Shown here piece by piece: positions 6,759 through 56,244 of a stretch of 64,000 nt of DNA. This DNA comes from a virus: IMG/VR virus record IMGVR_UViG_3300045988_150292, positions 14,386-78,385 of that record; one strand, given 5' to 3'. The number at the start of each line of letters is the position of its first letter. The stretch's first letter is position 1. A program made the position numbers and the translations under genes. The notes beneath the pieces were generated by a model, which did no database searches, was not told the origin of the DNA, and saw only the letters and a list, made by a program, of their open reading frames with translations.

Positions 6759-9700
6759 TTATTCGCCACGTTGCACGATTCGGCACTGGGCGGAACCTCC
6801 AGTAAACGCAGCCATATCATTCGACGGATAGAGAGCATACAAAGTCCGAGGCGAACAAGACACAGCATTCGCAGTGTTACGTAAACGCAAGCAAATACGG
6901 ACACGCTCGTCTTTACGACGGCTCCAATATGGATAGGATTGTGCAAAAAAACACTGCCAGCTCTGTATGTTGCCACCATTTGCAATTTTGTAAGGAGTAA
7001 AGCCGAGGCGGTCTTGTGTATATCCTTCTGAGAGGATAGGAGGACCGAAGGTTCCCACCTTGGGATATAGAGACTCAAAGCTGAAGGTTCCGAGGTTCGC
7101 CTTGGTGTATGTATTTTCGTCCACCCATTTCCTCTGATCTGTCTCCAGGTAGAAATCCACATAGGCGTCTCTTAACTGCTCCGGATTATATCTGCCTCCA
7201 GTATCGAGTTTGTTGGTTCCCACCATCTCCAAACCGCCACCCCAATAGGCATAGATGTCACCACTGAGATTCATGCCGTGTATCAGACTCATTCTTAACG
7301 ACAGTTCGAGGTCGTAGGTCACTTGTGTGCTGGCATCCTTGTAGCCTTTACAGGTGCCTTTCTTGATACGGTAAACCTTGCAGTTCATCACTCCGTCAGA
7401 AAGTTTTTCTGCACCGGGGATATTCTTATATCGGTAGACAGCTCCGTATGCATCAAAATCCGTATCTTCTGCCACACCGAACTCCGTAGCCCACGATGCT
7501 GCCATCTGGCTCTCCATGCACTGTTCCTTCGGTCTGCCATAGTTGATGTAATAACTGAAGTTGTTCGTGTCCATATTGGCATTCGCTCCAAAGTACGCTT
7601 GTCTGCCCAAAATGGAATAAACCCAGTCTTGGGTGCCCTGCTCCTTGGTGCGCACTCCGCCGTTCTCTCTCCAATCGTTTTCGTTTTTTACGTTGTCGTT
7701 GCTCGATATTCCCGAACCGAAGAGTGCGTTGGCGTGAAGATTTTTCGTACCATAGAGCAATTCCATACAAATGATGAATACATTCAGAGAGTGATAGCCA
7801 CCCTCGGCAAACGGCACCGGCGATTGTGAATTGACATTAGACACACGGGCTACAGCCTTATTCATTGCCTGGGAAATATCACTGCTTCTCGGATATGTGC
7901 GTCCGTCGTCTACGAACATCGAGCATACATCCTTTCCATATTGGCTTACGTGGTTCATCGTGTTCGTATCACCCACGGCATAGGTATAGAAAAAATTCCT
8001 TGCATTGCCGCCCAACGTAGTAATAGGACATGGCGACATTGCAGTGCCGAGAAATGGAAATCTGCCGGTGTCTATACCATCATACTTCACGGGTTTTTTG
8101 AATATTCCTGTCAGCATCTTGCCGCTGTCGCCTGTCTGACGGTCTACAGGATAGAGGGTGTCGTATCTGCCTATCATCACCGAATACTTCGTCTCCGTGG
8201 TCTCCCATGGCAACAACTGGCGCACCTTGTTACCCTCGCCATCGTATAGGTCAACAAGTCCCAGGGAATTATAAACCTCCGCTGCGTCGTAAGGGTGCTC
8301 ACCTGCCTTATCGGTTACAATAACACCATTTTTCAGCGTCAATGGAGTAGTGTGCTCAGCATCGGTATAGAGCTGCACGTCACACGCAGCACGCATCTCC
8401 TCCGTAATGCCCACGGTAGGTGCGAACGCTCCACTCTTGAAGCGGAAGAGATTGTTACCCATCAGCTCACCCACAGGGTGCGTAGCCTCTCCTGTGTTGT
8501 CGGTGTGGTCGATGAGATAGAAGTGCCAGTCGGATAAGATTTCCTTGTTGCCTTTGCAGTTCTTGAAATTTGGATCACCTGTCTTCTCGTCGTTCTCGCC
8601 GACATAATAGTCGGCCATGCCCTCCATCTCGCTTCTCAGAGTCTCGATGTTTGCCTTCGTTTCGTCCACCTTCTGATTAATCTTGCTGAGCTGCGTACAC
8701 ATACTCGCCGTCATTCCGTCCCTCACAACCTTCATCGTAAGGTCGGCAACGTCAACCTTATAGCTCACCACCACCTTGATGGCACTGCGAGACTGAAAGT
8801 TTGACACAAAGCGACAATATCCGTCCTCTGGAAGTTCAGCATCGGCATTGAGCAGAGTCATCGGCTGATAGCTGCCCACGGTAGTTTGGAATGTAGCAGG
8901 CAGATAATCCACGGTCTGCCCTGTCTGGTCGTCGGTAATCACGCAGCTCTCTACAGCCGCAGCATCAGCATCGTATGCGTAGGTGTAAGAATGAGTCTTG
9001 CCATCGTATGTAGCCTTGGCAGAGGCTATGCGTCCCTTCTCGTCGTATGTGTATGTATATTCAATCGCCCTACGCTCAATCTTGTCGATATACTCGGCAA
9101 ACACGCACACATTTCCGTCTGTAGCCCCCGGCTTGAACAGGTATTCGTTGCCAAGCTCGGCAGTAAACACCGCAATCGCCCAGCCCTGCTTGCTCACCTT
9201 CACACCGTCGGCAGAAATAGCCACGTTCTGCTCCGAAGGAGTGAGCACAATGTCAGGACGCTCCGAATACGGACCAAGGCTCTTTTTCATTCTCGCTACA
9301 TCGCTCACATCACCTAAATCGGCAGTCTTCACTGTTCCTGTGCGGTCGGTAACGGTCAGCACATGGTCGTCGTCCATCACGGCGTTCACCTTGCTTGCTC
9401 CGTTGGCGGCGGCATTGGCATTAGCCGTTGCCGTGTCGGCATTTGTCGCTGCCGTGTCCGCCTTGCCCGTAGCAGTGTAAGCAGCAGCAGTAGCGGCTTC
9501 GGCAGCAGCCACCGCAGCATCATTGGCAGCCTTGTTATCTTTCGCAGCCTGCTCACGCTTTGCCTCTGCACGCTGTCGTGAGAGCTCGGCAAGTACACGT
9601 TCGGTTTCGGCGGACACTCTTGTCGTCTCGTTCTCCTGTCTCGCCTGTTCCGAAGTGGTGCGCTCCCTTTCGGCTGCCGTGCGTTCCTGTTCAGCTGATT

Positions 9701-10823
9701 TGCGCTCTGTTTCAGCAGTTATGCGCTCGGTCTCATTCTTGCCACGTTCGGTTTCAGCGGTCACTCTTGCAGTTTCGTTCTCCTGTCTTGTCTGTTCAGA
9801 AGCAGTGCGTTCCTGCTCGGTAGCCACACGTGAGGCTTCGCTGTCCTTCCTTGTCTGCTCTGCCGTGGTGCGTTCCTGCTCGGCATTGTCCCTGCCAGTC
9901 TCAGCCTGCTTGCGCAGCGTTTCGGCAGCGTCGCGCTTGCCCTCAGCGTCTGCTCTCACATTTTCGTGCTGACGGCGCTCCTGCTCGGCATCATTGCGGT
10001 CGTTCTCTGCCGTATCACGGAGCTTTTCGGTTGCCTTGCGGCTTGTCTCCGCATCCTCACGCTCTTTCTCGTTGCGGATGCGGTCTGCCTCGTCACTCTT
10101 GCGCATCTTCTCCGCTTTCTCACGTGATGTCTCGTTTGCATCGCGGCGCTGCTCGGCATCGCTTCTGCCGGTCTCGGCGCTCGCTCTGTTCTCCTCTGCG
10201 GTCTTGCGCAGGTTCTCGTCGCCCTGCCTTGCCTGTTCCGCCTTGTCGCGTGCGGTTTCGGCAGTAGTGCGCTCCTGCTCTGAGGTGATACGACCTTCTT
10301 CCGCCTCCTGTCTTGCCGTTTCCGCTGCCTTGCGTTCCGCTTCTGCTTCCGCTACATCTGCGGCGATGTCGGTGGCTGGCTTGCGCAGAAAAGCGTACCA
10401 GTCTGCGAGTGTTCCCGTGTTGCCCTCACTGAGCCACACTTCGTATGCCGAAAGTCCGGGCTTGCCTATGAGCACGTTGCTCTGTAGACTCACCATAAAA
10501 TCCTCGAACTCCACATCGTCGTCGCTCTCCTCGCAGGAATGTGCCACGAGTATGAATGCCTGGTCTGCACAGACTGTCCTACGTGGTGCTCCTTCGGTAG
10601 CGTCTTCGAGTATCACCGCCCTTGCTCCCGTCATGCGCTGCATGGAAGCAGGGTAGACAAAGCTCACCACGCAGCCTTCCACTGTGAAGGTCGTGATTTC
10701 TTCTTTCCTATACGCCGACCTCAGGTAGAGCTTCAGCGCCTTCCCTTCGAGGCTCACGGCTTGTCCGTCCGTCTTCACCTCCCATCTGACATTGATGTCA
10801 TTGCCGATTCTTACCTTTCTCAT
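6759..10823 (-). CDS. tail fibre protein with ~300-aa Ala/Glu/Arg heptad coiled coil
   Basis: 1354 aa. N-terminal GKPGLSAYEVWLSEGNTGTLADWYAFL is a fibre-type motif, followed by a long AE(T/Q)xRxx repeat array and a large globular C-terminal part. Confidence 0.75.
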   Translation of the reverse strand: MRKVRIGNDINVRWEVKTDGQAVSLEGKALKLYLRSAYRKEEITTFTVEGCVVSFVYPASMQRMTGARAVILEDATEGAPRRTVCADQAFILVAHSCEESDDDVEFEDFMVSLQSNVLIGKPGLSAYEVWLSEGNTGTLADWYAFLRKPATDIAADVAEAEAERKAAETARQEAEEGRITSEQERTTAETARDKAEQARQGDENLRKTAEENRASAETGRSDAEQRRDANETSREKAEKMRKSDEADRIRNEKEREDAETSRKATEKLRDTAENDRNDAEQERRQHENVRADAEGKRDAAETLRKQAETGRDNAEQERTTAEQTRKDSEASRVATEQERTASEQTRQENETARVTAETERGKNETERITAETERKSAEQERTAAERERTTSEQARQENETTRVSAETERVLAELSRQRAEAKREQAAKDNKAANDAAVAAAEAATAAAYTATGKADTAATNADTATANANAAANGASKVNAVMDDDHVLTVTDRTGTVKTADLGDVSDVARMKKSLGPYSERPDIVLTPSEQNVAISADGVKVSKQGWAIAVFTAELGNEYLFKPGATDGNVCVFAEYIDKIERRAIEYTYTYDEKGRIASAKATYDGKTHSYTYAYDADAAAVESCVITDDQTGQTVDYLPATFQTTVGSYQPMTLLNADAELPEDGYCRFVSNFQSRSAIKVVVSYKVDVADLTMKVVRDGMTASMCTQLSKINQKVDETKANIETLRSEMEGMADYYVGENDEKTGDPNFKNCKGNKEILSDWHFYLIDHTDNTGEATHPVGELMGNNLFRFKSGAFAPTVGITEEMRAACDVQLYTDAEHTTPLTLKNGVIVTDKAGEHPYDAAEVYNSLGLVDLYDGEGNKVRQLLPWETTETKYSVMIGRYDTLYPVDRQTGDSGKMLTGIFKKPVKYDGIDTGRFPFLGTAMSPCPITTLGGNARNFFYTYAVGDTNTMNHVSQYGKDVCSMFVDDGRTYPRSSDISQAMNKAVARVSNVNSQSPVPFAEGGYHSLNVFIICMELLYGTKNLHANALFGSGISSNDNVKNENDWRENGGVRTKEQGTQDWVYSILGRQAYFGANANMDTNNFSYYINYGRPKEQCMESQMAASWATEFGVAEDTDFDAYGAVYRYKNIPGAEKLSDGVMNCKVYRIKKGTCKGYKDASTQVTYDLELSLRMSLIHGMNLSGDIYAYWGGGLEMVGTNKLDTGGRYNPEQLRDAYVDFYLETDQRKWVDENTYTKANLGTFSFESLYPKVGTFGPPILSEGYTQDRLGFTPYKIANGGNIQSWQCFFAQSYPYWSRRKDERVRICLRLRNTANAVSCSPRTLYALYPSNDMAAFTGGSAQCRIVQRGE

Positions 10824-44058: not shown

Positions 44059-44421
44059 ATGAGAACAAGAAAGTACAAGACCCTGACAGGGCTGCTGAAG
44101 GCATACGACAGAAAGCAGTTCACAATGAACGATTTCTTGTCTGGACGAATCTATGACGGCTACAAGACATTTAAGTTTGAACTGTCTGACGAAGCCCTAA
44201 GAGAATTGTCCGACGGCTTTTGTTATGCCTGCAACTGCCAGAAATCAAAACGCGACACGGTTTTCTTCAACATGAAATTCCATAAGATATTGAACCGTGG
44301 TATTCTGGACAGGCTATGGGTGGAGTTATGGAATGGCAAACCGAGCTTCACCTTCTGCGTAGGACAGGACGGAGATTATGAGTATCCGCTTGTTAGAAGA
44401 ACCCTATATCGGGGTTATTGA
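44059..44421 (+). CDS. hypothetical protein
   Basis: 120 aa, leader motif upstream. Confidence 0.55.
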   Translation: MRTRKYKTLTGLLKAYDRKQFTMNDFLSGRIYDGYKTFKFELSDEALRELSDGFCYACNCQKSKRDTVFFNMKFHKILNRGILDRLWVELWNGKPSFTFCVGQDGDYEYPLVRRTLYRGY

Positions 44422-44484
44422 GCCAAATGGCGTACATTTCCAAGTGTGCGCCTCATTTTACTAACCCTTTAAAACATTAGAATT

Positions 44485-46053
44485 ATGATTTTTATTAAAA
44501 GTTTCAAAAACTACGAAGAGTTCAAGAAGTTGTTTGCAATCGTGGAACACGGCAACGGAGCCAAGTCTCGCAAGAACAAGATTCTGCTTGCATGGCTCAA
44601 GGACAGACGCTTCCTCAAGGCGTGGCTCTCTTTCCAGAGGACCATGCTGAACAAAGGACTGGTGGCTGAAGAGTTCGTCTACAAATACGATTATCTTAAC
44701 GCCAGAAGTATGGACGATGTGAAAAAAGCCGTTCTCCGTATCTCGGAGTCATTCGCCGCATATCATTTTGACGGCGGACAACCTCAATGGATGGAGAATT
44801 ACGGACCTTTTGTCCTTAACGACTGGCCATTGCGCCACCGGACTCTCTATATCGACAGCCGCCACGGGTTGTGTGCCGACGGAGACACGAAATCCGTCCG
44901 CTACATCAATTCAGAGCGTGGCGACAGGGTGTTCAAGATGAAGGCAGGAAAATTCATAACTTCCTGTCTCGACAGCCTGCCGTTCACAGAAATCCTACCT
45001 GAACAGGTCAAACGATGGATAGGCGAGGAGTTCGCCCGTGACTGGCAGGTATATGCAGAGTCCCTTATCGGAGAGTCTGCGTTGACGCTCCACGTGGGAT
45101 CTGACAAAAGCGACTTTGAGACCATCTACGACAAAAACCTATACAAGGGAGATTTCCACTCCTGTATGGGAGGCGAGGACCAATACTTCTTCTATGCCGA
45201 CGCCGTGGATGCCAGCGCAGCATGGCTGACAGACAGTGACGGAATGATAGTGGCACGTTGTGTCATCTTCAATGACGTCATAGACGAGGAAGGGAAATCC
45301 TGGAGACTGGCAGAGCGTCAATACTCGTCCGATATGGACGAAGTTCTAAAGCAGACGCTTGTGAACAGACTCATCAAGGAAGGCCTCATCGACGGCTACA
45401 AGCGTGTCGGTGTCGATTGTCACGACAACAGGAATTTCGTCGCCAACAACGGCGAGTCCCTGAGGGCGAAGCGGTTCTCTATCGAATGCCGGCTGTGCGA
45501 TGGTGATACGTTGTCGTATCAGGACAGCTTTGTCTGTTACGACTACAACAAGGACATCGCATACAATCATTCCGATGTATACTACACCGACGATCTGGAC
45601 GTAACCAATCATCATTTCTACTGTTCACACGACAACGAAAGATGGTCGGACTATTCGCAAGAGTGGATCGCCGATAATGTCGCCGAGTATGACGACTATC
45701 ACGAGGACTGGATGCACGAGGACTGTTCGACTGATGCTATATATAACGGACACCACATCCATATCAACGAATACCGCACGAATGATTTCGTGTGGTCTGA
45801 AGAGGAAGACTGCTACATCTATGAGGATGAGGCGGTATGGGTTGAAAACCTCAACGACGACATCCTCAGAAGAAACGCCGTCGAGGACATCCACGGAGAG
45901 TGGCAGCGTGCAAACGATTGTGTGCACTCTGCATATCACGATGAGTACATCCTCAAAGAGGATGCTATTTACTCCGAAGTCCTCGAAGACTGGTTCGAAG
46001 ACGAGGATACGATGCACGAAGCAGAGAAAGAAGAACTTGAAGTAGAAGCCTGA
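44485..46053 (+). CDS. large hypothetical protein with strongly acidic, Trp/Tyr-rich C-terminal third
   Basis: 522 aa, leader motif upstream. The last ~150 aa are rich in D/E/W/Y/H (e.g. EDWMHED, VLEDWFEDED). Confidence 0.6.
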   Translation: MIFIKSFKNYEEFKKLFAIVEHGNGAKSRKNKILLAWLKDRRFLKAWLSFQRTMLNKGLVAEEFVYKYDYLNARSMDDVKKAVLRISESFAAYHFDGGQPQWMENYGPFVLNDWPLRHRTLYIDSRHGLCADGDTKSVRYINSERGDRVFKMKAGKFITSCLDSLPFTEILPEQVKRWIGEEFARDWQVYAESLIGESALTLHVGSDKSDFETIYDKNLYKGDFHSCMGGEDQYFFYADAVDASAAWLTDSDGMIVARCVIFNDVIDEEGKSWRLAERQYSSDMDEVLKQTLVNRLIKEGLIDGYKRVGVDCHDNRNFVANNGESLRAKRFSIECRLCDGDTLSYQDSFVCYDYNKDIAYNHSDVYYTDDLDVTNHHFYCSHDNERWSDYSQEWIADNVAEYDDYHEDWMHEDCSTDAIYNGHHIHINEYRTNDFVWSEEEDCYIYEDEAVWVENLNDDILRRNAVEDIHGEWQRANDCVHSAYHDEYILKEDAIYSEVLEDWFEDEDTMHEAEKEELEVEA

Positions 46054-46115
46054 AAAAAGGCGGGAGATGTAATGCTCCTGCCTTTACATCATTAACCATT
46101 AAAACATTTAGAATT

Positions 46116-47057
46116 ATGAAAGAAAAATTGAATTACGAGTTACTTAAAGATCTGTACTGCATCCATTCAAAAAGCGGCAGCGAGAAACGCATCCGTCGAT
46201 TCATCAAGAAATGGCTAAAAGCTAATGTTCCTGAAGCTGTCGTGACACAGGACAATATAGGAAACCTCTACATCACGAAAGGTGTTGCGGTTAATTACCC
46301 CTGCCTGTGCGCACACATGGACCAGGTGCAGGATTTCCATCCTTCTGACTTCACTTGTGTGGAGACTGACGAGGTCATTTTCGGCTATTCGCCCAAGATG
46401 CGCAAGCAGTGCGGACTGGGAGCCGACGACAAGAACGGGATATTCCTTGCGCTCTCTGCGCTGATGGAATACCCTGTCCTCAAATGTGCCTTCTTCATCG
46501 GAGAGGAAATCGGCTGCATCGGCTCAAGCGCCGCAGACATCGGCTTCTTCATAGACTGCCGTTTCTGCGCCCAGATTGACAGGCGTGGAAGCAGTGACAT
46601 GGTGACAGAAATCTCCGGTCCGCTCTGCTCAGATGGTTTCATCAAGGCTGCGGACTGCGAGAGCTGGGGCTACCATGAGTCCGGCGGAATGATGACGGAC
46701 GTAGAGGCGCTTGCAGAAGCCGGTGTCAGCGTGTCGTGCATCAATCTGTCCTGCGGATATTACGATCCGCACACCGACTGCGAGTTCACCCACAAGCCCG
46801 ACCTTGAGAAATGCTGGGCTTTCGTATGCCATCTCATAGAGGACTGCACTGCGGTCTATCCGTTCGAATACACAAACGGATGTCAAGGTTCAACAAGAAC
46901 TTTTTACGTCAAAGACAGTCTCTTATATGAGATGGAATGTGTCCTTGCAGAAGAACCGAATACCACATTCAGAGACTTCTACGACAACGTGGGATGTATG
47001 TATTCTGAGGTCAGTAGAGAAAGTCAGCACATACTGTTCGACTTTGCTAAGAAGTAA
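46116..47057 (+). CDS. M20/M28/M42-type zinc metallopeptidase-like protein
   Basis: Ordered metal/catalytic motifs CAHMDQV, GLGADDKNG, GEEIG, IDRR and YYDPHT. Confidence 0.55.
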   Translation: MKEKLNYELLKDLYCIHSKSGSEKRIRRFIKKWLKANVPEAVVTQDNIGNLYITKGVAVNYPCLCAHMDQVQDFHPSDFTCVETDEVIFGYSPKMRKQCGLGADDKNGIFLALSALMEYPVLKCAFFIGEEIGCIGSSAADIGFFIDCRFCAQIDRRGSSDMVTEISGPLCSDGFIKAADCESWGYHESGGMMTDVEALAEAGVSVSCINLSCGYYDPHTDCEFTHKPDLEKCWAFVCHLIEDCTAVYPFEYTNGCQGSTRTFYVKDSLLYEMECVLAEEPNTTFRDFYDNVGCMYSEVSRESQHILFDFAKK

Positions 47058-47123
47058 GCCTTAAAGAGCCCTGCTCCTCACGGAGTGGGGCTTCCTATTT
47101 TCTAACCTTTAAATTTCAAGAAT

Positions 47124-47801
47124 ATGGACAAGAAAAAGTACATTGAAATTCTGTCTTCCGAGGCGGAGAAGAACGGCAGGCCACAAGAGTCTGCCCTGGA
47201 TGATTTCCTCGACTACGTGATAGACTATTTCGACGTCAAGAGCCTGCAGTCCGGTATGGACTCATACGGCAATCACATTCTGGAGCAGAGGCGCAAATCG
47301 CACGGCTTCTTCAATCTTGTCATAATGTGGCTTCAAGATGTCGCCAAGGCTATGGAGCGTGGAGAATGGCTCGATGTGTTCGGCATTCTTTATGAGGAGA
47401 TGTACCTCTCTCGCGGCAAGGCTTCACGCACGGGACAGTTCTTCACTCCCCAGTGCGTGTCAGGCCTCATGGCTCAGGTAATCGACACCGGCAAGGAATG
47501 TGGCACGGTCAACGACTGCGCTTCCGGCAGCGGACGTCTCCTTCTCGCCCATTATATCAGCAAGAGCAGGACGGATCATTATGCCGGACGCCGCTTCAAG
47601 TATGTGGCGCAGGATTGCGATCCTATCGCCTGCAAGATGTGCGCCTGCAACATGATGGCGCACGGAATGTACGGAATGGTCATCTGCCAGAACACTCTGA
47701 CGATGAGCGTGCCCTCCGTTGTGTACTACATCAACGAGGCTAAATATCCGTTCGACACACCTTACTGCTCCATCCGTGCGGTACGCAACGAAAAAGCCTG
47801 A
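47124..47801 (+). CDS. HsdM/N6-methylase-like protein lacking the NPPY/F catalytic motif
   Basis: GQFFTPQCVSGLMAQVI, DCASGSGRLL (motif I) and YVAQDCDPIACKMCACNMMAHGM...CQNTL match the N6_Mtase layout. The ORF ends about 30 aa later without (D/N/S)PP(Y/F). Confidence 0.55.
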   Translation: MDKKKYIEILSSEAEKNGRPQESALDDFLDYVIDYFDVKSLQSGMDSYGNHILEQRRKSHGFFNLVIMWLQDVAKAMERGEWLDVFGILYEEMYLSRGKASRTGQFFTPQCVSGLMAQVIDTGKECGTVNDCASGSGRLLLAHYISKSRTDHYAGRRFKYVAQDCDPIACKMCACNMMAHGMYGMVICQNTLTMSVPSVVYYINEAKYPFDTPYCSIRAVRNEKA

Positions 47802-47849
47802 AACGGCCTCCCCTGTGGAGGCACATGTTTAACCAATTAAAAAATGATT

Positions 47850-48062
47850 ATGAATACGAATTTAAAAATTGCGCAGTGTGGAATCAGTGATGTTGTCGGT
47901 GGCAGAATGTGGTTTTGTGTAAAGCCCGACAATCCGCGTAAGGTTGAACGTTTTTATACAAAGAGAGAGTGCGAGGCGTATATACGCAAAGAACATAATT
48001 CTAATCCTTATCTTCTGAAAGAATTGCGTAATACTCATGGCAGAGCTTTTATTTACGCCTAA
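47850..48062 (+). CDS. hypothetical protein
   Basis: Start chosen at the ATG that fits the leader motif (MNTNLKIAQ). Confidence 0.5.
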   Translation: MNTNLKIAQCGISDVVGGRMWFCVKPDNPRKVERFYTKRECEAYIRKEHNSNPYLLKELRNTHGRAFIYA

Positions 48063-48111
48063 AAACAGAGAGTTTGTGCTCTCTGACATTATTAACCAAA
48101 ATTCAGAATTT

Positions 48112-48384
48112 ATGAGAAAGATAAAATGTGACTACCATTATGTAGACAACCTCGTCGCACGATACGAAGAGAAGGGAGGATATGCCATACAGCTCAATGA
48201 GGGTTCGCTCGCTTCTGGCGACTGGATTCTGTACGACGACACAGGGAAGCTGAAATGCTTCTATATCTACGAGGAAGCTCTCAGCTCATGGGCTTCTTGC
48301 CAGATCGTACAGGTTTACAGGGACTGGAACGGATTCCCGAAGAAATACAAGAAGATGGTGGAATCCTGCTGTGTCTACGCCTAA
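48112..48384 (+). CDS. hypothetical protein
   Basis: Start moved to MRKIKCDYHY, which follows hairpin 48066-48085 and the leader. Confidence 0.5.
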   Translation: MRKIKCDYHYVDNLVARYEEKGGYAIQLNEGSLASGDWILYDDTGKLKCFYIYEEALSSWASCQIVQVYRDWNGFPKKYKKMVESCCVYA

Positions 48385-48434
48385 AAACAGAGGGAGCAAT
48401 CCCTCTGCCATTATTAACCAAATTATCAAGAATT

Positions 48435-48662
48435 ATGAAGAGATTTTACGTATCAGTCACAGAGACTTTAAACAAGGTAGTAAGTGTAGATGCCGAGAAC
48501 GAGAAAGACGCATTGGAACAAGTAAAAGCAGCCTACTATGATTCGGCTATTGTTCTTGATTCTGACAATTTCTGTGGAGAAACTATAGAGATTGAAGACG
48601 ACCAGCAGTTCTATATCGACTATGAGAAGGACTACGGCAAAACCTATCAGCACGTAGACTGA
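48435..48662 (+). CDS. DpnD/PcfM-like small protein
   Basis: [46 protein letters not shown] resembles that family (from memory). Start fits the leader. Confidence 0.4.
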
Positions 48663-48712
48663 GCCGGACGGAGGCACACGCCTCCACATCATTAACCAAA
48701 TTTTTTACAATC

Positions 48713-49189
48713 ATGGATATAGCAATAATGAATTATTCGACAGCTGAAATCACAACAATCACAGGCTGTCCCGACAAGTGGGAGAACGAGCAGATCGAAG
48801 AATATCTCTTCAAGAAACTCAATCTCAAAGAGAGTGAAATACACTATATGTGTGCCAAAAGCGTCACCCACAAGACGGAGAAATACCGGACGCTTGAGGT
48901 GTGGCCTCTCCTGGAGCAGTTCCAGGAGCTGAAAGTGAAGCATCCTGATGCCCTGTTGCTCTTCCGTAGCGGCGATTTCTACGAGGCTTATATGGAGGAT
49001 GCAGTGACAGCCGCCAATCTCCTCGGAATAACGCTGACACGCTACAGCAAGCAGGTGGACGGCGAAGGCAAGCCGATAAAACTGGCAGGATTCCCTTATC
49101 ATGCTCTCGACACCTATCTGCCGAAACTCATACGGGCAGGACAGCGGATAGCCATCTGCGACTATACGGATATTCTTCCTGAACGATAG
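48713..49189 (+). CDS. stand-alone MutS domain-I (mismatch-binding domain)-like protein
   Basis: Residues ~70-155, [44 protein letters not shown]...[30 protein letters not shown], align with E. coli MutS residues ~12-95, including the GDFYE Phe-x-Glu motif. Confidence 0.65.
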
Positions 49190-49251
49190 CCGCAAGCCTT
49201 GAAAGGTGGGGTTGAAAAGCCTCACCGCATACAAACCAAAACTTTAGGAAT

Positions 49252-49680
49252 ATGACAGAACAGGAAATCATCAGGAGGGTGGAGAACGGAGAGAAGTTCT
49301 TCATAAACCTCGAAAAGCGCACTCTGCGCATCGCAAACCACCTCGTTGACCTCAAGGAGGTGGAGATGCCCGAATACGACGGCGACGTGTTGAAGGAGAT
49401 AGAGAGGAGATACAGGATATACAAGCACTCCGTCCCCTCCGAACGCTCTGAGTCCCACCGTCGCAGGTATTTCAAGGCTCTGCCGGAAAGTAAGCTGTCC
49501 GACGAGGCGATGATGTACGGAGAGCAGCGTGAGGTCGCACGGTGCAGCCTTGAGCTATTCGTCCTTATGGCAATAGTCAGAGGCATCCTCACATGGCACG
49601 AGGAATGGGGCTCGTGGTTCTGGCAGTCATCTGCCGACAAAGACCTCATATTGTTCCGCCAATGGATTGGCGCAGAATAG
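49252..49680 (+). CDS. hypothetical protein
   Basis: 142 aa, leader motif upstream. Confidence 0.55.
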   Translation: MTEQEIIRRVENGEKFFINLEKRTLRIANHLVDLKEVEMPEYDGDVLKEIERRYRIYKHSVPSERSESHRRRYFKALPESKLSDEAMMYGEQREVARCSLELFVLMAIVRGILTWHEEWGSWFWQSSADKDLILFRQWIGAE

Positions 49681-49752
49681 CCGGAACGGGCAGGGTTCGT
49701 CCCTGTCCTCACGAATTAACAAACCTTTTTTATTAATTAATTTTTTTGAATT

Positions 49753-50754
49753 ATGAAACGAAACGTAATGATTTCAGGTGAGTTCACTATGACTGAGTTG
49801 GAAAACAAGGCGACAGACAACGGCAAGAAGACCGCCGTCAAGACTGCGGCTGCACGCATAGCGGCCCTCAAGGCTGCCGGCATCGACACTTCAAACTATT
49901 TCTCTCTCGGAGAGCAGATGGTGGTCAAGGTCGTTGACGGAGTGCCTGTAGAGGTCACTGACGATGATCCCGTGTTCAACAAGATCAAGACCGGGGGATA
50001 TATCAGCCACTACAAGCTCTTCCGCCGGTGGGTGATGGCACAGATGTTCCGCATCCTGCGCGAAATGGAAGAGCGCAACCTCAGTTTCAACAAGGTGCTG
50101 CAGGGCTTCGGCTACGAATACCAGTGGCGCATGGTCGAAAACGAGTTTCTCGCACAGATGAAGATGTTCCGCCACGGAGACACAAGCTGCCTCAAGCAGC
50201 GTAAGCTCTTCTTTGACGGCAAGACTCTGGCTGACATGATAGACGATTATATCGACAAGCTGAAAGCCTACATTGAAGACAATCTCATGTATAGTACTGA
50301 CAAGCATGGTGTCCGCAGACCGAAGCACACGTGCAAGGGAATGCCTTATGTGCGTCTCAACAACGTCAACATCTTCGTGGATGACCTTAATACGAAAGTA
50401 TACAGACCGTTCAGGGAGATGGCATCCATTGCCACACACACCACCAATCCGGAGGAACTTTACAAAATCGTGGCAGCGTTCAACAAGAAACACAGGCATC
50501 TGTGCCACATCACGAAACACTCTTCAGCGTTCATCAACGCCTACAAGGGAGCAGGAGCGTATTTCACGATGCGCAACCTCATAATGTTCCACGGCGCACG
50601 TTTCCTCGGCATGAGCGAGAGCCGGTCTCTTGAGCATGTCGATGCCAAGGCGAACGCTTACAGAGAGGAGGGATGGCGCATGATGGGTGTTCTCAAGCAG
50701 CTCATCGCCGTTTCCCACATCTCCGTTGAAGCGAAAATCAAAGAGTGGGAATAA
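49753..50754 (+). CDS. hypothetical protein immediately upstream of the RT
   Basis: 333 aa, variant leader. No motif recognised. Confidence 0.6.
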   Translation: MKRNVMISGEFTMTELENKATDNGKKTAVKTAAARIAALKAAGIDTSNYFSLGEQMVVKVVDGVPVEVTDDDPVFNKIKTGGYISHYKLFRRWVMAQMFRILREMEERNLSFNKVLQGFGYEYQWRMVENEFLAQMKMFRHGDTSCLKQRKLFFDGKTLADMIDDYIDKLKAYIEDNLMYSTDKHGVRRPKHTCKGMPYVRLNNVNIFVDDLNTKVYRPFREMASIATHTTNPEELYKIVAAFNKKHRHLCHITKHSSAFINAYKGAGAYFTMRNLIMFHGARFLGMSESRSLEHVDAKANAYREEGWRMMGVLKQLIAVSHISVEAKIKEWE

Positions 50755-50986
50755 CACGCTCTCCTGAAGCCGACAGCGTGCGGTGGGCAGGCATTCTTTA
50801 CAGAAGCTCGTTTAAGCGGATCTCTCTACCTGGAGCATCTCCAGGTTCCGTGATCCCCCAAGAGGAGCTTCTACAATCAGAAACTTGCAGCGAGGCTCCA
50901 AGCCTGCGGCCGCACACAAGCCTAACGGCCCGTCACCGTCAAAAGTGGCGGGCTTCTTAGTATAAACCATTAAGACAAACAGAATT

Positions 50987-52252
50987 ATGAAAGAAGACAA
51001 AATCCTTGATATGTTCTTCGAGCCCGAACGCTGGCAGTACGCCATCGCAAAGGGTGTAGACAAGGACATAAACAAAGCTACATTGTATCAGCTCACAACT
51101 CCTGAGGCTCGCTCGCTAATGTATCAGCGGATGCGCGACGGACAATACAAGATAATGCCTCCGCACACGGCTGAGATACCGAAAGACAACGGCGATTTCC
51201 GCACGGTTTACGTAAATGAACCCTGCGACCGCGTAGTCCTTTCCATCGCCAACGACCTCTTCTTCGAGCTGATGCCCGAAATGCTCCACCCACGCTGCAA
51301 GTCCTACCAGAAAGGTATAGGCTGCGGAAAGGTGGTGCAGGAGGTGTCACGCCGCATCTGCAATGCCGGAGGAAAGACTGTCGGATGGAAGTCCGACCTC
51401 TCCAAATACTTCGATTCCGTCCCTCTCTCATTCATAGACAGGGCATTCGACAGGATAGAGGAGAAATACGGAAAATCGGCGCTCGTCGCCATTGTCCGCG
51501 ACTATTACCACTCCGACCTCTACTTCGACACACAGGGCAACCTGTGCCGCAGCTACCAGTCCCTCAAGCAGGGATGTGCCGTGGCTGCATGGCTCGCCGA
51601 CGTGGTCCTCTGTCATATAGACGAGCGTCTGTCCGGTCTCAACGGATATTATGTCCGCTATTCCGACGACACCCTGTATGTCGGAGAGGACTATGAAGAG
51701 GCGATGCGCATAATGCAGGAGGAACTGGCGGTAATGCAGATGAAACTCAACCCCAGGAAGGTTGAATATCTCGATGCGGACCACTGGTTCAAGTTCCTCG
51801 GATATTCCATCAAGGGGAGCTGCATCTCATTGTCTTCCTCGCGCATCAAGACTTTCCAGAAGGAAATAGAGCGCAGGACGATAAGGAAGCGCAACAATAC
51901 CTTCACACGTGCCGTGAACGCCGTAAACCGCTATCTCTACAAGGGGTACGGGGAATTTTCGTGGGCTACGCAGGTACTGCCGGTCATCAACGTTAAAGAG
52001 GACATCGACAAGCTCAACGCCTTCGTCATGGACTGCCTCCGTGCCGTCCATACGGGCAAGAGCAAGGTCGGCGGACTCGGATATGTCAAGACACAGGCAG
52101 TGGGATGCGTTGACCGCGGACGTGGCAGGAATGTCACGGCGAACAGGAGCAAGACGGAGAGCGAAATCAGAGGCTATCTATCAATAGGCTGCGCACGTAA
52201 CGCCATGCTCACAAGCAGGGCAGCGTACAGCATGTTGGTGGCAAACCTCTGA
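50987..52252 (+). CDS. reverse transcriptase (free-standing, group-II-intron-like/G2L-like palm motifs)
   Basis: IPKDNGDFRTVYV; WKSDLSKYFDSV; SLKQGCAVAAWLAD; YVRYSDDTLYV; MKLNPRK; FKFLGYSI. Confidence 0.85.
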   Translation: MKEDKILDMFFEPERWQYAIAKGVDKDINKATLYQLTTPEARSLMYQRMRDGQYKIMPPHTAEIPKDNGDFRTVYVNEPCDRVVLSIANDLFFELMPEMLHPRCKSYQKGIGCGKVVQEVSRRICNAGGKTVGWKSDLSKYFDSVPLSFIDRAFDRIEEKYGKSALVAIVRDYYHSDLYFDTQGNLCRSYQSLKQGCAVAAWLADVVLCHIDERLSGLNGYYVRYSDDTLYVGEDYEEAMRIMQEELAVMQMKLNPRKVEYLDADHWFKFLGYSIKGSCISLSSSRIKTFQKEIERRTIRKRNNTFTRAVNAVNRYLYKGYGEFSWATQVLPVINVKEDIDKLNAFVMDCLRAVHTGKSKVGGLGYVKTQAVGCVDRGRGRNVTANRSKTESEIRGYLSIGCARNAMLTSRAAYSMLVANL

Positions 52253-53240
52253 CACCTCTCTCCGTTTCCGGGCACACGGACCGGGGAGTAGGACGGACAG
52301 AGTTTAATTTCCTGCCTCAATGACGGCAAGGTACCTTGAGAGATTCTCCAAGGTACCTTACTCGCCCAAGGCAGGCAATATCATCACATTATTTTCATGT
52401 GCCGGTCCGTAACTCTCCCCACATGCGGCGCACACCGCCCCATCCCGACGAATGGCTCACGTTCATATATCCGGTTCTTAACCAGAGATAGAGGTTCCTG
52501 ATCTCAATCTCATTACTGAAAGGAGTTCAGGATCCTCGATTTCTGGCAGACCGGCTATAAATCGCTCCATTACAGCAATGTGCCAAGCCAAAGGTCGGAA
52601 CACCATCCGTGGACGCGGACCGTCTGCCTGCCTGCCTCATTTAACATCTCTGGATACAATCCACCGGCATCCACCGGGAAACTCCCCGTTACTGTCCGGT
52701 GTCCATCCAGACATTATCTGTATAATACAGAAACGTCCCATCAGACAGGGGGAGACGGATTTTCATTGCCGAAAAAGACACACAAGTGGAAACGCTTCAA
52801 CAATCCCGTATGAATTGCGGCGGGAGACAAATATCTTTGGTATCCCGCCGCTTGTAACATACTGGATAGTATCTACTGACTACAGCAAGGCAACAATTTC
52901 CTTGAGTGTGTCTACAATACAACCAAAGCCCATTGCAGGGCGTTCCGTCAGGGGCGTGCTATTCATGTGAGTCGTGCAGATATGACGCGTGGAAGGGTAG
53001 AGCCTATCCTTCAACGCGTCATCCGTCACGCCTCTACAATCTATACTCTATACCCCATGCAACACAGCGCCGGAGACGGGACAGGCATTGCAGCCTGAAA
53101 GTGCGCAAGAAGGAACATTCAGGAAAACAGTACGTATAGAATGATAGTCCTGCCAGTCTATCGCCTGGTAGTCCGATTATTCCACTTGACTGTTTTAATC
53201 AACGACATACAGACAAGCAACGCATCCTTTGAGCGCACAC
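52253..53240 (+). ncRNA. candidate structured RNA downstream of the RT (988 nt without credible ORF)
   Basis: No leader motif is present. Helices: 52276-84/52402-10, 52311-17/52369-75, twin AAGGTACCTT at 52328 and 52350, 52817-25/52843-51 and 52984-96/53008-20. Confidence 0.4.
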
Positions 53241-53269
53241 ACATCATTAACATCTTAAACTTTTGGATT

Positions 53270-53674
53270 ATGAAAAGAATCGACAACATCTCCGAAGCTT
53301 ATTCACATAAGCTCACCGCAGCTCCAATCGACGGCAAGAACGTAGTGGAAGAGGCTCTCTTGGAGGCAGTCTTCGACAATTCCGCATTCGTATCAAACAA
53401 GCACGATGACTCCATCGGCTTCATCAACGAATGGCCTGCAAGCGTACATGTGGCAGGAAACGGACTCGTATTGCAGAACCTCAGTTCCTCACTGCATCAC
53501 ATCATCGTGATGCGCAAGGCGGTAGAGAGGCTGACCGGCGATGCCTGCAACGGCATCAATACATACGGCACACTGGCGTATCTCGACGACGAGGAGGCGA
53601 TACCGCTCGTCTATTTCTTCTCCGTCACACCTGCACGGAGCCTGGTGGTGACAATCTTCTATGCTCCTGAATAG
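53270..53674 (+). CDS. hypothetical protein
   Basis: Start moved to MKRIDNISEAY, which fits the leader motif. Confidence 0.55.
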   Translation: MKRIDNISEAYSHKLTAAPIDGKNVVEEALLEAVFDNSAFVSNKHDDSIGFINEWPASVHVAGNGLVLQNLSSSLHHIIVMRKAVERLTGDACNGINTYGTLAYLDDEEAIPLVYFFSVTPARSLVVTIFYAPE

Positions 53675-53754
53675 CCTGCTAATGCCTTTGTCCCTTCCGG
53701 GCAGGGCACTCATTCTGACCATATCATAATTCTATACTAATGTTTTATCTTCGG

Positions 53755-53788
53755 CAGACCCACCGTGAGGTTCGTCTGTCGTATTTTT
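53755..53788 (+). terminator. intrinsic terminator with GTGA tetraloop
   Basis: CAGACCCACC-GTGA-GGTTCGTCTG followed by a T-rich run. Confidence 0.6.
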
Positions 53789-53849
53789 CTTTGAAAATAA
53801 TCATGCGGGATATGCGGAATTCGAAGGATTTTCCGTATATTTGCAATGA

Positions 53850-53904
53850 AATTTTAGATATAATGCAGCAGTCGGGACCCGCCGTGAGGTTCGTTCCGGT
53901 TTTT
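53850..53904 (+). ncRNA. candidate ~55-nt small RNA (promoter-like box to second GTGA-loop terminator)
   Basis: TATATTTG at 53836-53843. A homologous terminator CGGGACCCGCC-GTGA-GGTTCGTTCCG plus T-run lies at 53873-53904. Confidence 0.25.
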
Positions 53905-53969
53905 ACTATTCAAACACATGTCGAAAGGCCGTAAGGCACAATTTTCAAACCTTAAAATTTAGAAAGAAT

Positions 53970-54377
53970 ATGGCAAAAAAAGTAATTTTCGCAGACAACA
54001 TCCTCAGAGCGAAAGGTATCAGCAAAAGGAATTTCGACACCTCTGAACTCAATGAATTGGTAGAGGACTTTTTCATGACACATGAAGCCAATGCCAGGTT
54101 CATGATAGTTTCCGTCAGGTTCGCAGACAGGGAAGGTATGCCCGACAGCGGCATCGAGAACCATCTCGGCAGCTCCTTCTATCAGTGGCTTTTTAACGGT
54201 GAACAAGACGATTTCCTTAATCTGAGAAAGAACAAGGATTACAATCTTCCGATGATCATCATCGACGAGCCGTTCATCAAGAACGTCGCGTCTTATCTCC
54301 GCTCGATATGCGGGTTCACCGTCAAGCGCTCGAAGGACGTCCAGCCCGAGGCTTACGTTGTCTCGCTGCCGTTGTGA
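53970..54377 (+). CDS. hypothetical protein
   Basis: 135 aa, leader motif upstream. Confidence 0.55.
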   Translation: MAKKVIFADNILRAKGISKRNFDTSELNELVEDFFMTHEANARFMIVSVRFADREGMPDSGIENHLGSSFYQWLFNGEQDDFLNLRKNKDYNLPMIIIDEPFIKNVASYLRSICGFTVKRSKDVQPEAYVVSLPL

Positions 54378-54466
54378 TGCAGCCTTAAATGTGCAGAAAT
54401 AGTCGTGTTATCATATAATATTACTATCTTTGCACAACACATACTAACCCTTAAAACATTGGAATT

Positions 54467-55435
54467 ATGAAACAGGAAAAGCAGAAAGGATGGGAAGACC
54501 TTCTTTCCGAACCGCAGATCGAGAAGTACTCCAACGCCATCCGCCAGGGTTATTTCGACGACTACCACGGCAACGAATGGCGCCACACCTTCTACGGGGC
54601 ATGGATATGGAAACACCCGAACCGTGTCAAGGCAGTGTCGCGCTTCCGCGACCTCGTCGGGCATCTGCCTCAATGGGAGGATGTCACGGAAGACAATCTC
54701 CGTGATTTCCGCATGGAGCTCGACGACAACTACGCCCCCAACTCCGTGAAGACCATCTGCGCAGAGCTCTCGGCGATAATCCGGGCACACGGCGACAAGA
54801 ACATACCGCTTGATTTCAGCGGTCTCACGCGGATAATGAAGATGAAGAAGGTGCCTTCCGTCTCCACATACCTCACGATGCATGAGGTGGAGAAGATAAA
54901 CATGTATCACCCCCGTTCCGTCTACACCAGACTGGTAAAGCGCATCTTCATGATAGAGTGCCTCACGGGTGCAAGGTGGTGCGACTGCCTGCGCATGTCA
55001 CCGGACAACATCACGGAGCTTGACGGAGTGCCCTACATCCGGTACATCGCACAGAAGACACAGACCGAGGTGATGGTGCCGGTACATAGGCTGCTGCCAC
55101 AGTATCTCGTCAGGACTCCATTGGAACCCACGCAGCCCGACCTCTCGTTCTACAACAAGACCCTGCGCAAGATATGCCGATACTGCGGTGTCGTCTCGTG
55201 GGTCAAGGTGTTCAAGGGGGGCAAGGAGTATGCAGGGCGCAAATACAATTTCGTGTCCTCGCATACAGGCAGGCGCACCTTTGCCACCAACCTGGCGCAG
55301 AAGGGCGTTACACTTGAGCAGATTGCGCTCATGATGGGACACATGAACGGCAACGTGCCTAACATCGAAATGACAAAACGCTACGTGTGCGAAAAACTGG
55401 AGATTGACAAGAAGGTGCTCAAGTTCTTCCAGTGA
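54467..55435 (+). CDS. tyrosine recombinase (second, array-embedded)
   Basis: TGARWCD (Arg), SSHTGRRTFAT (H-x-x-R), MMGH and TKRYV (Tyr). 322 aa, leader motif upstream. Confidence 0.8.
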   Translation: MKQEKQKGWEDLLSEPQIEKYSNAIRQGYFDDYHGNEWRHTFYGAWIWKHPNRVKAVSRFRDLVGHLPQWEDVTEDNLRDFRMELDDNYAPNSVKTICAELSAIIRAHGDKNIPLDFSGLTRIMKMKKVPSVSTYLTMHEVEKINMYHPRSVYTRLVKRIFMIECLTGARWCDCLRMSPDNITELDGVPYIRYIAQKTQTEVMVPVHRLLPQYLVRTPLEPTQPDLSFYNKTLRKICRYCGVVSWVKVFKGGKEYAGRKYNFVSSHTGRRTFATNLAQKGVTLEQIALMMGHMNGNVPNIEMTKRYVCEKLEIDKKVLKFFQ

Positions 55436-55508
55436 GCATCCGAAGCCTCAAAAGGTGCAGTCCATACGGCTGCACCGCAATTCATCAACCTTTTAAATTT
55501 GAAAGAAT

Positions 55509-55967
55509 ATGTATATGCTTGAACAATTCAGAAAAATGTCCGAAGAGGAACTTGACAAGGAAATCAGACGAGTAAGAGAACACTACGAGAACGAGGAGCT
55601 TTCCGAGCTCTACCGCAAGGCGGCGGACTACGAGATCCGCACCTACGAGGAGATGAAGAGCGAACTGCGCTACCTTGACCGTCGCTATCAGGACGATATG
55701 ATGGAACGGGGCAGAAATGTTTGTGACGGCGAGTTCTGCGATTTCTTCATCGGCTGCCTGACCGATGCGGAGAAACACTCCAGTCTCCAGCTCCACGCTA
55801 TCGAGTGGTGCAAAATCCGGGGCGTGCTCTCCGACCTGCACCGTCCGCATTTCGAGAACGAGGACGGCGAGCGGTGCGACGAATACGGACGGCCTCTCAC
55901 TGCCGACGGAGAGCACTACATCGGTGAAATCATCGAAGGCGGCAAGTTCCGGGACAGAAAAAAATGA
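55509..55967 (+). CDS. hypothetical protein
   Basis: 152 aa, leader motif upstream. Confidence 0.55.
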   Translation: MYMLEQFRKMSEEELDKEIRRVREHYENEELSELYRKAADYEIRTYEEMKSELRYLDRRYQDDMMERGRNVCDGEFCDFFIGCLTDAEKHSSLQLHAIEWCKIRGVLSDLHRPHFENEDGERCDEYGRPLTADGEHYIGEIIEGGKFRDRKK

Positions 55968-56031
55968 CCCCATTGGCCTTAAAAGGGAGCCTTCCGGCTC
56001 CCACTTTGTCTAACATTTAAAACATCCTGAT

Positions 56032-56244
56032 ATGAAAGCAGTAAATCATTATGTTGCGTGGCTCGAATACAAAGGTCAGCGCAGCGCACGTTACCAGGGC
56101 TTCGCAGAAAGTCTTGACGAGTTTCGCCGGATGTGCGAGGAGAAGCATTTCAACCTCGACGAAACCGACGAAGTTGAGTGTATCAAGAAAGACGCGAGGA
56201 ATGCCGTTGGCAGACCATGCGAGAAAATTGTAACAGAGTATTAA
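56032..56244 (+). CDS. hypothetical protein
   Basis: 70 aa, hairpin 55984-56003 and leader upstream. Confidence 0.5.
   Translation: MKAVNHYVAWLEYKGQRSARYQGFAESLDEFRRMCEEKHFNLDETDEVECIKKDARNAVGRPCEKIVTEY

Follow-up and report, generated by a model that had tools for sequence, protein, structure and literature searches.

We analysed a 64,000-nucleotide (nt) stretch of viral DNA (IMG/VR record IMGVR_UViG_3300045988_150292, positions 14,386 to 78,385; hereafter the window, numbered from its first letter) and the locus within it that surrounds a free-standing reverse transcriptase (RT) gene. The window is from a tailed phage of gut Bacteroidales and carries genes for TerL, a portal protein, a major head protein, a primase and an Ant-type anti-repressor. 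All on the + strand, the locus consists of a small accessory gene, sORF (49252-49680, 142 amino acids (aa)), a large accessory gene, bORF (49753-50754, 333 aa), a structured non-coding RNA (ncRNA) unit that starts where bORF ends and precedes the RT (U0, 50755-50918), the RT gene (50987-52252, 421 aa) and an array of six further units (U1 to U6, 52267-53238). We consider it very likely that these elements make up a complete UG27 RT system carried by a gut Bacteroidales phage.

The RT has a YSDD active site and matched the Pfam profile RVT_1 (E-value (E) 1.2e-17). A first-pass annotation of this DNA had described it as a free-standing, non-intron RT with palm motifs, and the translation holds every motif it quoted, including YVRYSDDTLYV. 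Classification against curated RT profiles, which the same annotation had proposed, was run on PADLOC and returned UG27. The RT_UG27 profile matched at E 6.7e-222 and 734.9 bits, aligning residues 3-421 of the RT to positions 2-420 of its 420. UG26 came second with 111.5 bits (E 9.8e-33), about 600 bits below UG27, followed by the generic group-II-type profile (84 bits, 1.9e-24), Drt9 (84 bits, 3e-24), Drt2 (44 bits, 4.6e-12) and the retron RT profile (36 bits, 8.4e-10). These matches assign the RT as a full-length UG27 enzyme, a Class 2 UG/Abi RT. The annotation's suggestion of a group-II-intron-like or G2L-like enzyme is unsupported because the families after UG27 are far behind in these scores (735 bits against 111 for the next). 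The RT has 369 relatives in IMG/VR, the top one 99% identical, and its nearest relatives are found on IMG/VR viral contigs and in genomes of Segatella, Prevotella and Barnesiella. Among GenBank phages there were only two distant RT-level matches to the locus (63-68% identity), and 20 kilobases (kb) of the window's phage had no near match there.

The RT gene is followed by about 1 kb with no credible or conserved gene (52253-53269, from the RT stop to the next start codon at 53270). The longest open reading frame (ORF) in this segment (52578-52970, 130 aa) measured 130, 119, 97 and 152 aa across loci whose RT DNA is 96-98% identical and was missing from more distant loci. This inconstant length, together with conservation that tracks RNA pairing and not codons, agrees with the earlier description of the stretch as ORF-free. 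The motif ATCN7TANAG occurs exactly on the + strand at 52561, 52716, 52871 and 53198, and with one or two mismatches at 52380, 53039 and 50876; downstream of the RT the copies are spaced 155-181 nt apart. A further exact copy at 54944-54958, within an integrase ORF, was without covariance-model support and was read as chance. The 52253-53240 region is composed of six tandem ncRNA units of 152-174 nt, and a seventh unit lies in the RT 5' intergenic region. The first-pass annotation had offered the segment as a candidate partner RNA of the RT. This reading of it as the structured partner or template RNA was correct, but it is not the single long RNA that had been envisaged, and it had seemed several-fold longer than known ncRNAs because it is an array of six units of about 150 nt. 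The proposed Rfam/Infernal scan, carried out over 49000-55000 with E up to 1, returned no match; Rfam holds no curated UG27 RNA family. When the 1-kb segment was folded as a single molecule, its minimum free energy structure was dominated by long-range mispairs from one unit to another and so gave no information.

To define the units we compared 113 related loci, of which 80 came from viral contigs of IMG/VR and 33 from contigs of bacterial genomes. Most of them have the start motif downstream of the RT stop at intervals of 150-190 nt, five to eight copies being the usual number. The architecture was read from an alignment of the last unit of the array across loci. From 5' to 3' a unit is made up of a hairpin (4-5 base pairs (bp) and a 6-nt loop), a basal stem, UUYA, a variable central hairpin, the start motif AUCN7UANAG and a pseudoknot strand. 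The basal stem is built in two parts around an AAG/GAG-type internal loop, and the pseudoknot strand, 3-4 nt past the start motif, pairs with the loop of the 5' hairpin. All six downstream units of the window have the 4-5-bp hairpin and a 6-nt loop with bases complementary to a segment 3-4 nt past the motif, and UUYA (TTTA or TTCA) stands at the 5' foot of every central hairpin in the window. Four of its units have an exact start motif, two have one mismatch and one has two.

Pairing was strongly supported by covariation. In an alignment of 35 orthologous last units (A1), 91.2% of cells were paired as compared to 31-43% when the 3' partners were slid by 1-3 columns; 22 of 27 pairs had changed on both sides, and none of 500 shuffles reached the observed values. 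In a second alignment of 47 diverse units from other loci, with no window unit (A4), 89.6% were paired as compared to 31-43% when slid, and all 27 pairs had changed on both sides, a count biased upward as the nested helices were aligned by a model containing them. No shuffle out of 500 reached either the percentage paired or the covariation score. The pseudoknot was 93.5% paired in A4 with 4/4 pairs covarying, and this is an independent test because the pseudoknot was not in the covariance model that assembled the alignment. From MAFFT alignments RNAalifold retrieved no more than the 5' hairpin and basal stem in one case and almost nothing in another; plain alignments are insufficient because the central hairpins are too diverse to be aligned by sequence.

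Units were located with two covariance models and a descriptor. Model R1 was built from last units and run without filters over the complete window on both strands, while model R2, which is weak, contains the apex-trimmed scaffold only and was built without window sequence. The descriptor consisted of a 4-bp hairpin with a 6-nt loop, an ATC 60-175 nt downstream and a 4-nt complement of the loop 3-4 nt past the 15-nt motif. It recovered exactly the six downstream units within the 1 kb, as compared to about 33 matches per 64-kb strand when shuffled (about 0.5 per kb). R2 produced nine matches in 52240-53280, all on the + strand and touching all six units, with scores of 35 bits for U6, 26 for U4 and 15 for U3 and weak matches for U1, U2 and U5. 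As the R1 and R2 scores of U1, U2 and U5 are weak, these three were placed mainly by the descriptor and by hand mapping. R1 also gave two weak matches elsewhere, at 44405-44454 (+), in the intergenic region before the gene at 44485, and at 9865-9949 (-). Each scored 12.5 bits (E 0.019) and covered the 5' hairpin and outer basal stem only; they could be chance or remnant scaffold.

In the unit-by-unit mapping that follows, the ends of the predicted complementary DNA (cDNA) templates were set by the published start and stop points. U0 has a basal stem at 50778-83/50910-15 and 50787-92/50902-07, UUUA at 50797-50800, a central hairpin at 50801-50875 and the start motif ATCAGAAACTTGCAG at 50876-50890 with one mismatch (TGCAG for TANAG), and its predicted template is 50797-50878. 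R1 matched it at 50740-50918 (19.4 bits, E 2e-4 for the whole window), and its 5' hairpin and pseudoknot are ambiguous. One unit directly follows bORF in either of the gene orders found among the loci, for example at 8452-8615 of locus L021 and 8120-8286 of L093, both of the other order.

U1 (52267-52420) begins with the 5' hairpin 52267-70/52277-80 (loop GGCACA), and its pseudoknot pairs 52272-76 with 52398-52402. The basal stem is 52283-88/52415-20 and 52293-98/52405-10, UUUA is at 52303-06 and the central hairpin at 52307-52379. Its start motif, ATCATCACATTATTT (52380-94), is degenerate with two mismatches (TATTT), and the predicted template is 52303-52382. U1 was matched by the descriptor and weakly by R2 (52293-52410, E 0.25 in a 1-kb search), and because of the two motif mismatches its activity is uncertain. 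U2 (52425-52598) has the 5' hairpin 52425-28/52435-38 (loop CGCACA), a pseudoknot of 52430-34 with 52579-83, the basal stem 52445-49/52594-98 and 52453-57/52586-90, UUCA at 52462-65 and a long central hairpin (52466-52560). The start motif ATCGCTCCATTACAG (52561-75) is exact and the predicted template is 52462-52563; the unit was matched by the descriptor and partially by R2 (E 0.03). U3 (52606-52758) has the 5' hairpin 52606-09/52616-19 (loop TGGACG), a pseudoknot of 52611-15 with 52734-38, the basal stem 52620-25/52753-58 and 52627-34/52742-49, UUUA at 52640-43, a central hairpin at 52644-52715, the start motif ATCTGTATAATACAG at 52716-30 and the predicted template 52640-52718. It was matched by the descriptor and partially by R1 (52646-52735, 22.1 bits, E 3.5e-5 for the whole window).

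U4 (52760-52911) has the 5' hairpin 52760-64/52771-75 (loop ATTGCC), a pseudoknot of 52766-70 with 52889-93, the basal stem 52778-83/52906-11 and 52788-92/52897-901, UUCA at 52796-99, a central hairpin at 52800-52870, the start motif ATCTACTGACTACAG at 52871-85 and the predicted template 52796-52873. R1 matched U4 over its full length (52753-52914, 60.2 bits, E 5.4e-16) although the unit is outside the seed, and the descriptor matched it as well. U5 (52928-53079) has the 5' hairpin 52928-31/52938-41 (loop ATTGCA), a pseudoknot of 52933-37 with 53058-62, the basal stem 52945-49/53075-79 and 52953-56/53068-71, UUCA at 52962-65 and a central hairpin at 52966-53038. The start motif ATCTATACTCTATAC (53039-53) has one mismatch (TATAC) and the predicted template is 52962-53041. 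U5 was matched by the descriptor, R1 and R2 detected its 5' hairpin only, and its pairings were mapped by hand. U6 (53082-53238), the last unit and the best conserved across loci, has the 5' hairpin 53082-86/53093-97 (loop ATTGCA), a pseudoknot of 53088-91 with 53217-20, the basal stem 53101-06/53233-38 and 53110-14/53225-29, UUCA at 53118-21, a central hairpin at 53122-53197, the start motif ATCAACGACATACAG at 53198-212 and the predicted template 53118-53200. R1 matched it at 53075-53241 with 111.9 bits (E 1.1e-30), but U6 is a member of the seed.

The five strong helices that the first-pass annotation had listed in this segment are all found in the sequence, and four of them proved to be parts of the central hairpins of U1, U4 and U5. 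The pairing 52311-17/52369-75 (in helix I8, 52307-17/52369-79) is the lower stem of the U1 central hairpin, and the two AAGGTACCTT decamers, which pair together over 11 bp (helix I7), are its apical stem. The helix 52817-25/52843-51 (in I6, 52817-31/52837-51) is the apex of the U4 central hairpin and 52984-96/53008-20 (in I3, 52982-53000/53004-22) that of U5. The fifth, the 9-bp helix 52276-84/52402-10 (I11), competes with the family-consistent pairing, namely the 5' hairpin and inner basal stem of U1. ACGGAC occurs twice in U1 (52276-81 and 52293-98); in R2 it is the second copy that pairs with 52405-10. The octamer TCTACAAT, earlier noted as shared between the RT 5' untranslated region and the downstream segment, occurs seven times in the window (12869, 37048, 39797, 42522, 50870, 52911 and 53033) as compared to 1.7 expected, and none of 100 shuffles reached seven. 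The three cited copies exist, and those at 50870 and 53033 are homologous, each forming the junction of the central-hairpin foot with the AUC start site, but the copy at 52911 is not homologous to them.

The 142-aa and 333-aa genes are identified as sORF and bORF because their homologues occur in UG27 loci and because both are domain-less as in the literature; neither had a Pfam or PHROG match. Homologues of sORF were found beside UG27 RTs by tblastn, with bORF homologues directly after sORF, and both were present at 98 of the 100 related loci with full flanks. At the locus of Alistipes putredinis DSM 17216 (L109), identity to the window was 69% for the RT, 42% for sORF and 38% for bORF.

UG27 RTs were described by Mestre et al. 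(2022, NAR, PMC9226505), who included IMG/VR among the databases searched, as occurring mostly in predicted human-gut phages of Bacteroidetes and Firmicutes, without enrichment in defence islands, linked with two gene clusters of unknown function and followed by an intergenic region with a predicted structured ncRNA. Li et al. (bioRxiv 10.64898/2026.09.22.753630, Sept 2026) reported that UG27 loci comprise an RT, sORF, bORF and a variable array of ncRNA units of about 150 nt, which are conserved in structure, diverse in sequence and carry AUCN7UANAG, UUYA, a basal hairpin and a pseudoknot. In the five systems that they tested, one of them from Alistipes putredinis, the cDNAs were hairpins of 50-100 nt that start at the AUC of AUCNNNNNNNUANAG and end after UUYA, and these were lost in YSDD-to-YSAA, delta-sORF and delta-bORF mutants. 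Li et al. also described variable gene order, extra units in neighbouring intergenic regions, whole-unit gain and loss at other UG27 loci and no evident targets of the cDNAs.

The window locus shares with these systems the RT family, the two domain-less accessory proteins, the arrays of ~150-nt units with AUCN7UANAG and UUYA, the basal hairpin and pseudoknot, the extra intergenic unit, the phage context and the Bacteroidota host range. Its unit sizes (152-174 nt) accord with the ~135-167 nt that define UG27 arrays, and the window belongs, like them, to phages or prophages of Bacteroidota or Bacillota. The differences are not categorical, being a minority gene order and slightly degenerate start motifs in three of seven units. 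By analogy with the literature, the array at the window locus would be transcribed and copied into cDNA with the same start and stop points. The scaffold of 5' hairpin, basal stem and pseudoknot would present the variable central hairpin inside an asymmetric internal loop; the RT and both accessory proteins would, by homology with the systems of Li et al., start DNA synthesis at the AUC of AUCN7UANAG, and the RT would copy the central hairpin and stop after UUYA. With such start and stop points, each unit would therefore give one short single-stranded cDNA hairpin.

The seven predicted cDNAs are all different and 78-102 nt in length. Hairpin folding as DNA gave z-scores between -4.1 and -6.8 for six of them and -1.9 for U6. 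When templates and cDNAs were compared with the rest of the 64-kb window no complementary target was detected; exact matches were 12 nt at most, with E no lower than 0.29. To follow the evolution of the array we compared the window with the four loci nearest to it (L001-L004, RT DNA 96-98% identical). No variable columns were found in the 5' hairpins (0/88) or the pseudoknot strands (0/29) and three of 90 in the start motifs. In the central hairpins 76 of 460 columns varied (16.5%, a value inflated by indels) as compared to 13.5% of RT third codon positions, and the positions of several of the changes (52976/53027 and 52997/53007, for instance) suggest compensation. The two percentages are close, and the templates therefore drift about as fast as neutral sequence while being held to a hairpin; accelerated template diversification was rejected on the same comparison. 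L002-L004 have an extra complete unit, a 164-nt insertion with the motif ATCAGTCTCCTGTAG directly after the RT stop (L002 5270-5419, as compared to window 52253-52266). As their RT DNA is 96-97% identical to that of the window, whole units have been gained or lost between near-identical phages.

UG27 systems can be set beside other RTs that use a structured RNA. As with retrons, a free-standing RT would here copy part of an adjacent structured ncRNA into short, abundant, hairpin-forming single-stranded DNA. In contrast to retrons, UG27 RTs belong to another RT clade, their loci have many template units instead of one, and they need two obligatory accessory proteins, are phage-borne and are not enriched in defence islands; the 2'-5' branch and a1/a2 repeats are retron features without evidence at the window locus. 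DRT2 (UG2) likewise combines a Class 2 UG RT with a neighbouring structured ncRNA template, but its ncRNA is upstream of the RT (Mestre et al., PMC9226505), and UG27 differs from it by an array of templates and two extra proteins. According to Li et al., the cDNA of other Class 2 UG RTs is long or concatemeric, whereas that of UG27 RTs consists of discrete 50-100-nt hairpins. DRT9 (UG28) and DRT3 (UG3+UG8) also have UG-type RTs with group-specific conserved ncRNAs, but they are other UG groups (Drt9 profile 3e-24) with a role in host defence and a single ncRNA each. Diversity-generating retroelements (DGRs) share a phage-borne RT and a nearby non-coding template; unlike them, the window RT is without the SQ signature, and the 64-kb window has no template repeat/variable repeat (TR/VR) pair and no target gene.

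Several points weigh against a complete and functional UG27 system. The key experimental paper is a preprint, and expression of the window locus and its cDNA are predicted by homology. In three of the seven units the start motif is not that of the consensus (TATTT in U1, TATAC in U5 and TGCAG in U0 for TANAG), and U1, U2 and U5 are weakly detected by the covariance models, so that some units may be inactive. The accessory genes were assigned by homology to genes of UG27-RT-containing loci, and L109 was equated with the A. putredinis construct of Li et al. by organism and strain name. The order RT-array-sORF-bORF-unit was seen at 94 of 103 loci and the window's order (sORF-bORF-U0-RT-array) at nine. 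In favour of such a system, the analysis itself shows that the RT is of the UG27 family, that sORF and bORF are present, that the units have the covarying architecture and that a phage carries the locus.

The mismatched motifs (two in U1, one each in U5 and U0), the weak or partial covariance-model matches of U1 and U5 and the gain and loss of units between close relatives, as in the extra 164-nt unit of L002-L004, would also fit a partly decayed array in which only U2, U3, U4 and U6 template cDNA, with U0, U1 and U5 as relics, spacers or structural elements. U1 and U5 nevertheless keep their 5' hairpin, basal stems and UUYA, form a pseudoknot of 5 bp and contain a stable central hairpin, and the 5' hairpin and pseudoknot strand of the downstream units are invariant in the window and L001-L004, which argues for continued selection. 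The start motif may also tolerate changes in TANAG since the extra unit of L002-L004 has TGTAG. We regard partial decay as unlikely, though with an appreciable chance of being correct. A passive non-coding spacer of terminators, attenuators or repeat elements, unrelated to RT activity, is very improbable. Terminator-like hairpins are common between operon genes and the segment matched no Rfam family, but an architecture with a long-range pseudoknot, AUC and UUYA covaries across distant loci and always accompanies a UG27 RT, and homologous arrays were experimentally shown to be templates (Li et al.).

There is next to no probability that the segment encodes a protein such as the 130-aa ORF at 52578-52970. 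ORFs of 77-130 aa do exist on the + strand, but the length of this one varies even at 96-98% RT DNA identity, it is absent from distant loci, the conservation follows pairing instead of codons and the ORF crosses four separate RNA units. Equally remote is an RT of some other system with its own RNA partner or target (retron msr/msd, DGR TR/VR, DRT2/DRT9 or group II intron/G2L). The secondary profile matches to Drt9 (3e-24), the group-II-type profile (1.9e-24), Drt2 (4.6e-12) and the retron RT (8.4e-10) would speak for it but are weak, and UG27 matched over the full length and some 600 bits higher. A group II intron or G2L RT was rejected on that margin and because Rfam identified no group II intron in 49000-55000 (E up to 1), a retron because its best RT profile reached only E 8.4e-10 and no Rfam retron RNA was matched, nor any other RNA family, and DRT2 and DRT9 because their profiles gave 4.6e-12 and 3e-24 as compared to 6.7e-222 for UG27. 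For a DGR, the RT is not of DGR type and no template match longer than 12-15 nt was found in the rest of the window; no template repeat that could act as a VR was detected there (longest exact match 12 nt). A complete UG27 system remains our preferred explanation.

The genes around the UG27 locus are those of a phage accessory region. Immediately before sORF comes a gene encoding only MutS domain I (MutS_I; 48713-49189, 158 aa, Pfam E 5.9e-26), and a tyrosine recombinase (integrase) gene is at 54467-55435. The first-pass annotation had named both as suggestive context, and both genes were confirmed, but the MutS_I gene is the third gene upstream of the RT and not the second; the two genes in between are sORF and bORF, which that annotation had not linked to the RT. 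Homologues of MutS_I lay within 4 kb of the RT at only 17/113 loci and the integrase occurred at 7/113, and this context is accordingly not suggestive; as unconserved neighbours the two were rejected as parts of the system. A mismatch-binding MutS_I domain beside a predicted maker of bulged DNA hairpins is still a curious pairing. Further upstream are a small DpnD/PcfM-like protein (48435-48662, Pfam E 1.2e-13), present near the RT at 74/113 loci, mostly of one phage lineage, and just before it a 225-aa N6 DNA methylase fragment (47124-47801), both typical anti-restriction-type accessory genes.

The RT shares a leader with its neighbours, as had been noted earlier: in an unbroken run of 13 or more + strand genes between 44485 and 56032, each has the motif TTAACC..TTAAAA..GAATT-ATG in front. 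In full it reads (CAT)TAACC-N-TTAAAA-N4-6-(A)GAATT-ATG, at a fixed distance of about 30 nt before the start codons (44425-56032), and it is also found before the gene that follows the non-coding stretch. The putative leader of the RT is at about 50955-50986, and between it and U0 RNAfold predicted a G+C-rich terminator-like hairpin (50927..50954, + strand; scan match 50936-50951). Several other leaders are also preceded by a G+C-rich hairpin, and leader and hairpin together look like a per-gene promoter, leader or terminator cassette of the accessory region.

The UG27 system, its array and its products have already been described (the 2022 paper and the 2026 preprint), and near-identical loci are present in IMG/VR. 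The window locus adds no new kind of system and is a clean identification of a UG27 member. On the role of phage-made cDNA hairpins, one idea, which we consider improbable, is that the array is a modular library of structured single-stranded DNA decoys or aptamers that titrate or blind host factors as counter-defence, with hairpin shape (bulges and mismatches) mattering over sequence complementarity. This would be consistent with phage carriage and the lack of defence-island enrichment (Mestre et al.), with unit gain and loss between phages of 96-98% RT DNA identity, with an invariant scaffold whose templates change roughly as fast as synonymous sites without losing their hairpins, and with the lack of a complement to any template elsewhere in the window. 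A narrower version, in which mismatched hairpins are ligands of the MutS-domain-I-only protein, is weakened by the rarity of that gene beside the RT (17 of 113 loci).

Unrelated tooling led independently to the same unit architecture and pseudoknot, with strong covariation, which corroborates the preprint on this point. A complete locus of the minority gene order is now also documented, and its seven units and the cDNAs predicted from them have been placed to the base. The frozen scaffold, the approximately neutral drift of the templates and the turnover of units among near-identical phages constrain ideas on function, and the shape or presence of the hairpin may matter more than its exact sequence.

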